This document shows, piece by piece, positions 1 to 2,013 of a stretch of 64,000 nucleotides of DNA. The DNA comes from Spirochaetia bacterium (GTDB lineage: Bacteria > Spirochaetota > Spirochaetia > DSM-16054 > Sediminispirochaetaceae): the NCBI GenBank assembly GCA_034520965.1, contig JAXHMY010000001.1, positions 864,001 through 928,000 on the forward strand, read 5' to 3'. The notes beneath the pieces were generated by a model, which saw only the letters and a list, made by a program, of their open reading frames with translations, was not told the DNA's origin and searched no databases. Every line of letters starts with the position of its first letter. Within the stretch, counting starts at the first letter, position 1. The translations under genes were made by a program, and so were the position numbers.

Positions 1-151
1 CATCTTGATTTATTTCTCCTGCTATACCTGTCCATTGAAAAGATCGATCACTGTTCTCCACAGTCAAAATGGCCTGTTTGATATTTTTTTTTAAAACTAG
101 GTTATTTAGTACCATTTGGAATGAGTTATTATCAATATTCTTCATTGCCAT
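1..151 (-). CDS. Second cassette ORF, 5' part only (runs off the window); resembles the N-terminus of a serine hydrolase (beta-lactamase-like family)
   Basis: Not in the ORF track. GAGGAG RBS then ATG at 151; translates MAMKNIDNNSFQMVLNNLVLKKNIKQAILTVENSDRSFQWTGIAGEINQD. Lies directly after the attC-like GTTAGCG site. The SxxK motif would lie outside the window, so the family call is tentative. Confidence 0.55.
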   Translation of the reverse strand, partial: MAMKNIDNNSFQMVLNNLVLKKNIKQAILTVENSDRSFQWTGIAGEINQD

Positions 152-210
152 TTGCTTTACTCCTCAAATATGCTCATATATTTACGTCTCTTACTGGGAA
201 AATAAATTGC

Positions 211-298
211 CGCTAACGTTCTGCGAGTACCCGAAGTTGGCGAACAACGGGAGCCAATTTGGGCGGAGCGAAGCGTAGCCGGGTACTCGCTGTTATAT
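211..298 (-). mobile_element. attC-like cassette recombination site (88 bp)
   Basis: Minus strand: ATATAAC-A-GCGAGTACCCG...CGGGTACTCGC-AGAAC-GTTAGCG. Has AAC/GTT cores and perfect 11-bp arms (223-233 and 280-290), and sits between two co-oriented AT-rich ORFs. Confidence 0.85.
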
Positions 299-330
299 GA
301 CGTTTCGGGGGCGTTCTTAGACATACTATT

Positions 331-744
331 TTACTTTGTCTCTGGGAAAAATTGATTTTTATTTCCACAGTTTAGACATACCCCCCTATGAACACATAAC
401 AGATTACCACACTCGTTACATTTCCATTTTTCTTTCTCTATGTTTATAAATTTAGTCAGTCCTATTTCCTTAATTGTTTTAAGATTTATTATCGGGCTTT
501 CACCATATTTTGTTGTATATCGTTTATCCAGATTTTTAATTCTTCTACAAGGAAATTTACTGCATTCGGTGCACAACCGTTTTTCATCCCCTTTTTTTTC
601 AGGACATGATTTTATACTACAAACAGTACAATGGTACGGTTTATTACCTATGCTATTACACCCAACACATTTATTTTTTATTCTTTGGAAGCCTAAACAT
701 AGATCACATATTACTCCACATGGAGCAATACTAGTGTTATTCAT
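331..744 (-). CDS. Cys-rich DUF3795-like protein; ORF of the first gene cassette (cassette spans about 217-808)
   Basis: APCGxxCxxC...CxGC...CxIKxC...CxECxxFPC pattern; AT-rich; own AGGAG RBS; flanked by att sites. Confidence 0.8.
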   Translation of the reverse strand: MNNTSIAPCGVICDLCLGFQRIKNKCVGCNSIGNKPYHCTVCSIKSCPEKKGDEKRLCTECSKFPCRRIKNLDKRYTTKYGESPIINLKTIKEIGLTKFINIEKEKWKCNECGNLLCVHRGVCLNCGNKNQFFPETK

Positions 745-788
745 ATTTAATAACTCCTGCTTTTTTCATCTTATAAATCATTTCCATA

Positions 789-848
789 GCCCCCGAAATG
801 TCATATAACTCCCAATATCTTGTTCTATCTTGCACTTTTTCACAGCTT
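789..848 (-). mobile_element. attI-like insertion site; predicted crossover G|TT at 809/808
   Basis: Minus-strand GTTATATGA at 809-801, about 40 bp past the integrase stop. Bases 789-809 are a 20/21 inverted match to 292-312. CAAGATA direct repeats lie at 816-822 and 826-832. Confidence 0.75.
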
Positions 849-1922
849 CTATCCTCCCGGGAGGGTGTCAAAGGGGCTGGTGATATTTTGTACGCTGAGA
901 TTGCTTACGTGGGTGTAGATTTCGGTGGTACGGGAGCTTTTATGGCCCAGGAGCTCCTGGATGTAGCGTAGATCGGTGCCGTTTTCAAGTAGGTGCGTGG
1001 CGAAGGCGTGACGGAGAGAGTGGAAACTGAGTTGTTTGGTGATTTCGGTGCGCGACAGTGCCCGGTCAAAAATCGCCTGGGCGGAACGGACGGACAGGTG
1101 TTTTGAGAGCTGCTGTCCGGGAAAAAGCCAGCTGTGAAGCATAAAGTTGTTCCGGTACTGGGTGTAGAGAGCCTGTAGGCTGCGCGGAAGGATGGTGTAG
1201 CGGTCCTTATTTCCCTTTGCTGCACGGATATGGAGGAGGCCGCGGTCGAAATCAAGGTCGCCGAGCTTAAGACGGACGACCTCGCTCACGCGCACACCTC
1301 CGGAGTAGGCGAGTGAGAGGAGAAAACGGTGTTTGATGTTGGAGAGGATATCGGGATACTTTCTGCTCATCCGGGGGACGGGAATTGAATCCGCCGGATT
1401 GGGATAGCGCTGCGGGTAGTTTATCCTGAAGAAATGGCGCAATGCGCTTACACAGTGCACCGCGCCGCTGCGAGAGAGCCCTATACTGTCGGCCAGGCTT
1501 TCTAGATAAAGAACTATTCGTTCCCGGGTAACCTGAGCGGGAGGGCAGGCGGTACGCTGGAAAAACCTCCGCACCTGGCTTTCATATACCTGCATTGTGC
1601 TTCTGCTGTAGCCGGCCAGCTGGAGCTCCCGCCACATGGCGGCAAGGCCCGGGGTCAAATCGGGTACTTCAGGGGCTTTAGGTGCTACCCTTTGGGTGGG
1701 GGGCGCTGCTTTTTCGGATTCGGGCAGGCTGAACAGCCCTGTGTGGTGCAGTTTTTTCAAAAGGTCGTCAAGGTTGGACTGGCTGTCGGATATGATCCAG
1801 TGTTCATTAGTGGGATCCCATTGCCGCCCGGGAATGCTTCGCAACAGCTTGACCACACCGGGATGATAAGGAGTCTTTATAATTAAGTGTCCCCTGTGGT
1901 CTCCTCGTATCGAGAGCTGCAT
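849..1922 (-). CDS. Tyrosine recombinase (integron-integrase-like, lacking the IntI-specific insertion) with an extra N-terminal domain
   Basis: Catalytic motifs GVRVSE (R), KGNKDR (K), HSLRH (HxxR), LGH and TEIYTH (Y); SAM-like core-binding region GYSRSTMQVY. Confidence 0.9.
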   Translation of the reverse strand: MQLSIRGDHRGHLIIKTPYHPGVVKLLRSIPGRQWDPTNEHWIISDSQSNLDDLLKKLHHTGLFSLPESEKAAPPTQRVAPKAPEVPDLTPGLAAMWRELQLAGYSRSTMQVYESQVRRFFQRTACPPAQVTRERIVLYLESLADSIGLSRSGAVHCVSALRHFFRINYPQRYPNPADSIPVPRMSRKYPDILSNIKHRFLLSLAYSGGVRVSEVVRLKLGDLDFDRGLLHIRAAKGNKDRYTILPRSLQALYTQYRNNFMLHSWLFPGQQLSKHLSVRSAQAIFDRALSRTEITKQLSFHSLRHAFATHLLENGTDLRYIQELLGHKSSRTTEIYTHVSNLSVQNITSPFDTLPGG

Positions 1923-1945
1923 GTTCCCACCTTTTTGTTTATTCC

Positions 1946-1974
1946 ACTATAATCCCGGCTGTGAGTGGCGTCAA
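1946..1974 (-). promoter_or_regulatory. sigma70-type promoter of the integrase
   Basis: Minus strand TTGACG (1974-1969), 17-bp spacer, TATAGT (1951-1946). Confidence 0.65.
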
Positions 1975-2013
1975 GCAGAAGGTCTAATGATTATACAGGC
2001 GAACTTTACAGGC

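Follow-up and report, generated by a model that had tools for sequence, protein, structure and literature searches.

A tyrosine recombinase without the IntI-specific insertion and its integron-like array of folded cassette sites in a spirochaete genome

Analysis of a 64,000-nucleotide stretch of the genome of a Spirochaetia bacterium (G000:C1:864001-928000, C1 being the source contig; hereafter the window, to which coordinates without a prefix refer) revealed a tyrosine recombinase gene followed, on the same strand, by an attI-like site and an array of AT-rich gene cassettes. The data very probably describe a second type of sedentary, integron-like platform, run on folded cassette sites by a recombinase that is sister to the integron integrase IntI and lacks its I2 insertion. 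A previous sequence-only reading of the window had proposed a system of this kind, in which a non-IntI recombinase builds a downstream array. The idea of a separate integron-like system stood; on the other hand, the geometry of the sites is not that of standard attC, and the enzyme encoded in the window has suffered a deletion and at present probably does not build the array. Both this 12-codon deletion and a HARP-like domain in the same protein had been overlooked in that reading. The features of the region are collected in Table 1.

Table 1. Features of the recombinase gene and the start of its cassette array (window positions; R and L boxes as in integron sites; the slash in G/TT marks the crossover point)
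Feature	Position	Strand	Details	Basis
Start of cassette 2	1..216	minus	cassette of 1358 bp; 378-aa PF00144 serine hydrolase/beta-lactamase-family gene begins at 151	Pfam
First cassette site	211..298	minus	R'' 292-298, 6-nt spacer, L'' 280-285 without extrahelical base, L' 228-233, 10-nt spacer, R' 211-217	folding
Cassette 1	217..808	minus	592 bp; ends complementary as expected of a circular intermediate	chain analysis
Cassette 1 gene	331..744	minus	DUF3795 protein, 137 aa	open reading frame list, Pfam
attI-like site	803..833	minus	L-like box 816-821, 6-nt spacer, core G/TT with G at 809; second 7-bp box copy 827-833	sequence
Tyrosine recombinase without IntI insertion	849..1922	minus	357 aa; array on same strand	open reading frame list, PF00589, NCBIfam
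Short K236-H301 interval	1020..1217	minus	location of the IntI-specific insertion in IntI	65 aa vs 106
Deletion scar	1339..1346	minus	36-bp in-frame deletion (12 codons) at 8-bp direct repeat	homologue alignment
Core-binding (SAM-like) domain	1425..1640	minus	PF13495, residues 95-166	Pfam
HARP-like N-terminal domain	1737..1922	minus	about residues 1-62	Pfam, profile, fold searches
Sigma-70-like promoter candidate for recombinase	1946..1974	minus	TTGACG-17-TATAGT, 10/12	weak

The window recombinase keeps all six residues of the catalytic set that had been read in it (R211, K236, H301, R304, H327 and Y336), and matched PF00589 with an E value of 4.6e-38. The interval between the catalytic lysine and the HxxR box, previously described as short, was indeed found to span 65 amino acids. 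Within a set of 79 distant loci, fetched with the family alignment and including short-interval, Xer-like and IntI recombinases, the corresponding distances were 64-65 residues in most relatives, 71-74 in XerC/D-like proteins and 106 in IntI. The profile TIGR02249, used as a stand-in for the IntegronFinder intI_Cterm profile, aligned to the window protein at model positions 5-175 and 231-315 and left positions 176-230 unmatched, and pairwise alignment of an intact homologue with one IntI gave gaps all through the insertion. No NCBIfam model reached its cut-off for the window protein, the best scores being those of NF040815 (173 bits; cut-off 220) and TIGR02249 (155; cut-off 265), and in the comparison with the XerC/XerD/XerA dimer resolvases all scores remained under the cut-offs (156/329.6, 148/335 and 173/220 bits, the last being that of NF040815). 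The best match among PDB sequences was 4a8e (XerA). The model of the intact homologue P0002 (predicted local distance difference test, pLDDT, 88) had IntI (2a3v) and XerA as nearest structures, with 2a3v at the top of the Foldseek results.

The position of the protein was examined in quick trees with 7 and 5 IntI rows, which included XerC/D and from which archaeal XerA was absent. IntI formed its own clade, with values of 99-100 in the Shimodaira-Hasegawa-like approximate likelihood ratio test (SH-aLRT), and the window protein fell outside it, within a separate clade of 23 rows shared with the array-linked proteins (SH-aLRT 95); the XerC/D clade (98-100) stood apart from both. The protein is thus placed outside the IntI clade, with no alignable I2 region, as the sequence-only reading had anticipated. 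A nesting of IntI inside the no-insertion family was not established by these trees, and a single clade of all 29 no-insertion rows was not rejected (approximately unbiased test, p-AU 0.63).

Past the stop codon of the recombinase gene, the elements follow in the order and on the strand previously described: the G of a GTT core 40 bp beyond the stop, an AT-rich open reading frame (ORF), an AAC...GTT hairpin and a second ORF. Further att sites had been expected to the left of the window, and 19 of them were found there. The whole array comprises 20 hairpin sites in 21.6 kb (C1:843234-864294, mostly left of the window), all co-oriented and one cassette apart, with a degenerate 3' core in one site. 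Its GC content is 38%, vs 48% for the genome, and 33 of its ORFs lie on the array strand and 11 on the opposite one. Pfam searches with 30 array ORFs identified abundant toxin-antitoxin functions (Gp49+HTH, MazEF, HicA, two HicB, two HigB+HTH, ParE, MazE-like+PIN and Fic), together with two DUF2442 proteins, a methyltransferase, hydrolases, a CAAX protease and an IS110 transposase. A cargo rich in toxin-antitoxin genes is usual for sedentary integrons.

If cassettes enter as circles at G/TT, the bases preceding each AAC should pair with the start of their own cassette after GTT. In the window array such own-flank pairing amounted to 77/100 positions, vs 50/100 with the start of the next cassette, and none of 20000 permutations reached the observed chain complementarity. 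The same trend was observed in seven relative arrays (292/296 vs 211/296), with permutation counts of 0-12 in 5000 for six of them and 221 in 5000 for L126. Since the first cassette fits this chain rule with the site at 809, that site is marked as the attI. An attI-like motif no further than 170 nt from the stop codon (27-108 nt) was present in 18 of 29 loci, with 1.3 expected, the pattern having been derived from the same loci. In addition, the recombinase gene and its upstream neighbour are kept in two genomes of the same genus (G006 and G007), with different sequence after GTTA, and loci L104 and L105 are identical as far as GTTA and divergent beyond. A contig of run X5 carries the first cassette, matching to position 809, and then the end of a different att site. 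Judged from sequence evidence, an attI with insertion at G/TT therefore lies beside the recombinase, and the cassettes are co-oriented and bounded by folded AAC...GTT sites, as the 20 sites and their chain complementarity indicate.

The hairpin at 211-298 was by itself little above chance (z -1.9; 6 of 200 shuffles scored as well), so that support for the site comes from the whole site family. This family was studied in 111 sites, with 65 distinct arm pairs, from 13 loci (the window array and 12 relative loci). Its consensus consists of AAC, 6 nt, a 6-bp L box, a variable loop region, a complementary L' box, 8-10 nt and GTT. The L box has T at position 7 in 94% and G at position 12 in 92%, with no extrahelical base. 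The R''-L'' spacer is constant at 6 nt, and the 3' (R') spacer has 2-4 extra unpaired bases; in the window array, 17 of the 20 sites show an offset of +4, that is, four extra 3'-arm bases beside the R box. Pairing between arms was found at 564 of 650 positions, vs 314 for shuffled arms (maximum 357), and L-box positions 7-12 were paired in 57-64 of the 65 arm pairs, most of these positions by more than one type of pair. The bottom strand gave the more stable fold in 57 of the 65, which is suggestive of bottom-strand recombination. The L' box resembles the box located 6-7 nt before GTT in attI-like sites, so that attI has the normal spacing of a simple site; the cassette site would reach that spacing only with 2-4 bases looped out, and would thus need a folded single strand. 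The R' spacer, whose length changes between 8 and 10 nt from site to site of a single array, is easier to reconcile with a folded substrate than with a duplex one.

The canonical geometry of attC, with one or more extrahelical L-box bases and spacers of 5-6 by 6 nt, was not found in the window array sites. A strict rule for asymmetric sites gave 10 matches on both strands of the 3.35-Mb genome, all 10 in the window array. A universal 1x5 loop (+4) was considered and rejected, since relatives show +2, +3 and +4. An identity of the sites with the Flavo-1 motif, also considered, is unsupported because no relevant Rfam family matched: searches of L001-L003 gave only a chance snoRNA match, and those of 8 relative loci gave tmRNA, tRNA and DUF805 RNA, none of them relevant to the sites. 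A lone degenerate asymmetric site, with both core triplets changed, was observed between two similar-looking genes on C9 (C9:45704-45788; L004 7704-7788).

At E 1e-70, a family profile built from 16 proteins had matches in 144 genomes out of the 401 sampled from the phylum, and part of the 144 were checked for arrays. Twenty relative loci were fetched, picked for long contigs, and in seven of these (L117, L121, L126, L127, L128, L130 and L131) the recombinase gene is followed by an array of 9-16 asymmetric sites, whose offsets range from +2 to +4. The genes downstream of homologues, predicted to be variable in the sequence-only reading, proved to be so: no related pairs were detected among the first downstream ORFs of 16 loci, and att-like sites were present. 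When the spirochaete-derived rule was applied to the 79 distant loci it gave seven sites (six in Bacteroidota and one in Spirochaetota), all of them past the end of short-interval recombinase genes and in their orientation; the rule gave no match upstream of the genes, on the opposite strand, or in the vicinity of Xer-like or IntI genes. Regarding a canonical integrase acting from elsewhere, no TIGR02249 match covering the insertion region was found in 10 of 10 relative genomes (94-100% complete, four of them with masked stretches). Among them, G271 (in one contig), G348 and G367 combine large arrays with the absence of IntI, and no masked bases are listed for these three.

Several other features of these relatives were recorded. 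Several of the cassettes in L121 (G367:C25) are very short, at about 150-280 bp, and eight scan matches there have an offset of -3. In L011, from an uncultured Bacteroidia, the 3' arm of a site 2137 nt past the recombinase stop is nearly identical to that of one window-array site type, a similarity that hints at cassette exchange across phyla. Near an array, G333:C2:238711-277021 contains three more recombinase genes, of 310 aa each, whose TIGR02249 match is split in the same way; they are possibly carried inside the array. The family recombinase is present in two to four copies in some genomes, such as G197 (C1, C2, C6, C7) and G348 (C1), and in the latter both copies head arrays.

The genome under study also harbours a true intI gene (C3:79716-80998; L003 9716-10998), read in two frames with a break at a C-rich run that may be genuine or an assembly error. 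Beside it, in divergent orientation, lies an array (C3:39304-78209) of about 24 attC sites, each of 127 bp and nearly identical to the others, with the canonical structure of 6+6 spacers and extrahelical bases. This array and that of the window have no DNA in common at E 1e-5 and no common site type, and the strict asymmetric-site rule gave no match in the intI array. Further canonical attC copies were observed at the start of C8 (three, C8:1328-3966) and, as a solitary copy, at C2:425966-426099. The genome's own Xer-like genes are located on C8.

The N-terminal region of the window recombinase is likely a HARP domain, although its score in this copy (17.8 bits against PF07443) is under the cut-off of 25; P0002 scored 26.3, and of 101 homologues, 61 matched the Pfam HARP model (E<=0.05). 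A profile made from 35 N-termini retrieved the HARP domain of SMARCAL1 (4o66) with an E value of 1.2e-5, the next-best match being at 0.19, and Foldseek with this domain also placed 4o66 first (E 0.026). The ESM Atlas search of the N-terminus returned only unnamed clusters, at 0.89. The small alpha/beta fold weakly resembles those of SMARCAL1 HARP, the N-terminal domain of T4 UvsW and the C-terminal domain of MotA. In SMARCAL1 the domain is fused to a helicase, whereas here it is fused to a recombinase. HARP of SMARCAL1 binds DNA junctions.

Alignment with homologues revealed that 12 residues are missing between positions 194 and 195 of the window recombinase, which are present in 15 of 15 aligned homologues. 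The deleted segment corresponds to helix 204-212 of the P0002 model, the first helix of the catalytic domain, and the window copy is probably inactive because the deletion takes out this core helix. A contig of run X2 crosses the scar unchanged, and contigs of runs X3 and X5 have the full sequence. The idea that the deletion stems from an assembly error was weakened by the unchanged scar in the X2 contig, although that run, of low depth, probably comes from the source sample itself and is not an independent sample. Orthologues at the same locus in G006 (L140, G006:C91) and G007 (L139, G007:C65) carry different, larger internal deletions.

It has to be noted that several observations weigh against a platform driven by this recombinase family. 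The window enzyme itself bears the 12-aa deletion and, given the larger deletions in the G006 and G007 orthologues, the recombinase appears to be often decayed within this genus by repeated loss. Among the 20 relative loci, four are without a site (L124 and L133-L135, the last three forming a separate branch of the tree), five have about 1-3 or doubtful sites, contig ends truncate three, and L132 contains a 10-copy repeat with a poor fit to the site rule. Of the 35 short-interval loci followed by 1 kb or more of sequence, the strict rule scores only 7, an initial scan of the 79 distant loci under strict settings gave no +4 enrichment, and both this rule and the attI rule were derived from the same spirochaete data that they describe. 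An intI could be hidden in the masked stretches (16-74 kb) that 4 of the 10 relative genomes contain, and the joints of the X5 contig could be other array orders. As to the N-terminal domain, the VIA fold search was not decisive, with 4o66 at Z 4.8, under eIF1 at 6.4, and family members of about 280 aa are without it. Furthermore, in the text of PMC4889954 (Cury et al. 2016) 21 such recombinases near canonical attC sites are reported and judged not to be IntI. The supplementary tree of those 21 proteins may include family members, and asymmetric sites may escape the attC model used in that study.

The presence of a true intI gene in this genome raises the alternative that the array is a cluster of attC sites lacking an integron integrase (CALIN), that is, a set of variant attC sites built in trans by the canonical IntI of C3:79716-80998, with the neighbouring recombinase as a bystander. 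The damage to the window recombinase and the use of the same core triplets as attC would agree with this, and passages of PMC9024848 describe such clusters as common. However, the IntI array has one uniform canonical site type and no asymmetric sites, whereas the window array is the reverse; the attI-like motif recurs past the stop codon of this particular recombinase; and the sites are without the extrahelical bases that, according to passages of PMC4792948, IntI reads. The alternative is also disfavoured by the existence of array-bearing genomes without IntI (G271, G348 and G367), and we consider it very improbable. A real system working by double-stranded recombination, either Xer/lambda-like or heteroduplex-tolerant as in Tn916/CTnDOT, would leave the hairpins as simple inverted binding sites. 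It would suit a protein without I2 that is XerA-like in its best PDB sequence match, and IntI itself is described in PMC4792948 as capable of two-strand exchange on attI x attI. Against it stand an L'-R' spacer that ranges over 8-10 nt within single arrays while R''-L'' is constant, stems that vary in sequence with pairing kept, the lack of homology between attI and cassette spacers outside the core, and the greater stability of the bottom strand in most arm pairs, so that we regard it as very improbable.

That the hairpins are mobile repeats (similar to miniature inverted-repeat transposable elements or to repetitive extragenic palindromes) or RNA elements, collected in an AT-rich island with no cassette recombination, is in our view barely credible. 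The insertion sequences (IS110) that break the array and the solitary degenerate copy on C9 would agree with it; on the contrary, flank complementarity tracks the cassette chain, the sites are regularly co-oriented one cassette apart, their junctions fall exactly at G/TT, and the Rfam searches described above gave no relevant match.

Regarding the integron-like platform that we favour, the array, its G/TT cassette boundaries, the conserved attI-like site, the non-attC geometry and the linkage of this geometry to the recombinase family are established at the level of DNA and protein sequence, and from them we infer that a family enzyme catalyses cassette recombination. The recombinase would bind the duplex attI-like site and the folded single-stranded bottom strand of a cassette site, which would be cut at AA/C with exchange of one strand. 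In integrons the second exchange is blocked by extrahelical bases held by the I2 domain, as stated in passages of PMC4792948. Since I2 and extrahelical bases are both missing here and the asymmetric spacer loop is conserved, the loop would take over their role: the 2-4 extra unpaired bases of the R' spacer would set the choice of strand and block the second strand exchange, replacing the extrahelical bases read by I2. Replication would then resolve the junction, as in integrons. More speculatively, the HARP-like domain might read the single-strand/double-strand junction at the spacer loop. Toxin-antitoxin cassettes would help to hold the array in place.

In terms of expression, promoter-like matches in 700-2100 numbered three, with 1.0 expected, hence the weak standing of the candidate upstream of the recombinase gene. 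A Pc-type promoter was looked for, and no sigma-70 match within the recombinase gene pointed to the attI-like site. The cassettes could perhaps be transcribed by read-through from the recombinase promoter, as no minus-strand terminator was seen.

Other elements were observed along the array. A type I restriction-modification locus starts right past the last site (C1:835858-843240; L002 9858-17240), a border that recurs in G010 (L143). As the locus opens with the same bases as the Fic cassette, it may once have been a cassette itself, of very large size. A GC-rich palindromic element of unrelated sequence, with a terminal GTTA (L001 14012-14200), stands straight after a site whose R' flank breaks the chain; it may represent either an empty cassette or the insertion of a small element. 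Two insertion sequences lie within cassettes (L001 10199-11206 and 12694-13524); one corresponds to the IS110-family transposase, between hicA and hicB, and the other to an opposite-strand transposase-like ORF without Pfam match. Duplicated or partial cassettes were found at L001 14196-14403, 5541-6352 and 6351-6764; they involve the 3' part of the DUF3795 cassette, the Gp49+HTH pair and DUF2442.

Comparison with known systems places this platform close to the sedentary chromosomal integrons (VchIntIA, 2a3v; TIGR02249), with which it shares a recombinase beside an attI-like site, AT-rich cassettes rich in toxin-antitoxin genes, the AAC/GTT core with G/TT crossover and folded cassette sites, and an enzyme family that appears to be sister to IntI and away from XerC/D, with 2a3v as top Foldseek match. 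It differs from them in the absence of I2 (65 vs 106 aa) and of an extrahelical base in the L box, in an R' spacer of 8-10 nt instead of 6, in the HARP-like N-terminal domain, and in the location of attI past the stop codon on the same strand. The 'inverted' integrons of the Treponema type have a true IntI and attC sites with a protruding L-box G, both absent here. XerA, XerC, XerD and NF040815 are alike in the catalytic set, the lack of insertion, the best profile score (173 bits) and 4a8e, but the window protein is under all their cut-offs, and its family branches apart from XerC/D in trees that leave XerA outside and is tied to cassette arrays. Because the I2 insertion and canonical attC geometry, two defining features, are both lacking, the array and its recombinase should not be filed as an IntI integron, though they appear integron-like in their working.

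Integron finders define IntI by its extra domain, as passages of PMC4889954 and PMC9024848 indicate, and integron-finding pipelines would thus be expected to miss this system. Passages of PMC4792948 describe the I2 domain as a requirement for accommodating the attC extrahelical bases, those of PMC8138268 refer to the insertion as 'not fully conserved' in an integron-like subgroup, and in the text of PMC3607928, a study from 2013, Treponema is the only spirochaete clade found with integrons. No description of the present system was found in the literature searched, which covered few subscription journals and no supplements; searches within it for a HARP domain with a tyrosine recombinase, for non-canonical or proto-integrons and for non-canonical arrays in Bacteroidota also gave nothing.

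Altogether, the balance of the evidence leans slightly towards a broader view, in which these arrays represent a second, widely distributed integron class that has an integrase clade and a site code of its own, where folded single-stranded DNA would be recombined without I2 by means of an asymmetric spacer loop, possibly read by the HARP-like domain. Such a class would fill lineages thought to be integron-free, including much of Spirochaetota and Bacteroidota, would coexist with classical integrons without exchanging cassettes with them, and would be the ancestral form that gave rise to IntI through the gain of I2. A cassette system without I2 and without extrahelical bases would make that pair just one solution to cassette capture, and the origin of integrons would become testable by swaps of enzymes and sites. 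The occurrence of both systems in one genome would provide a natural control for specificity and, with the recombinase family present in over a third of the sampled genomes of the phylum, a large unannotated cassette pool would be exposed.

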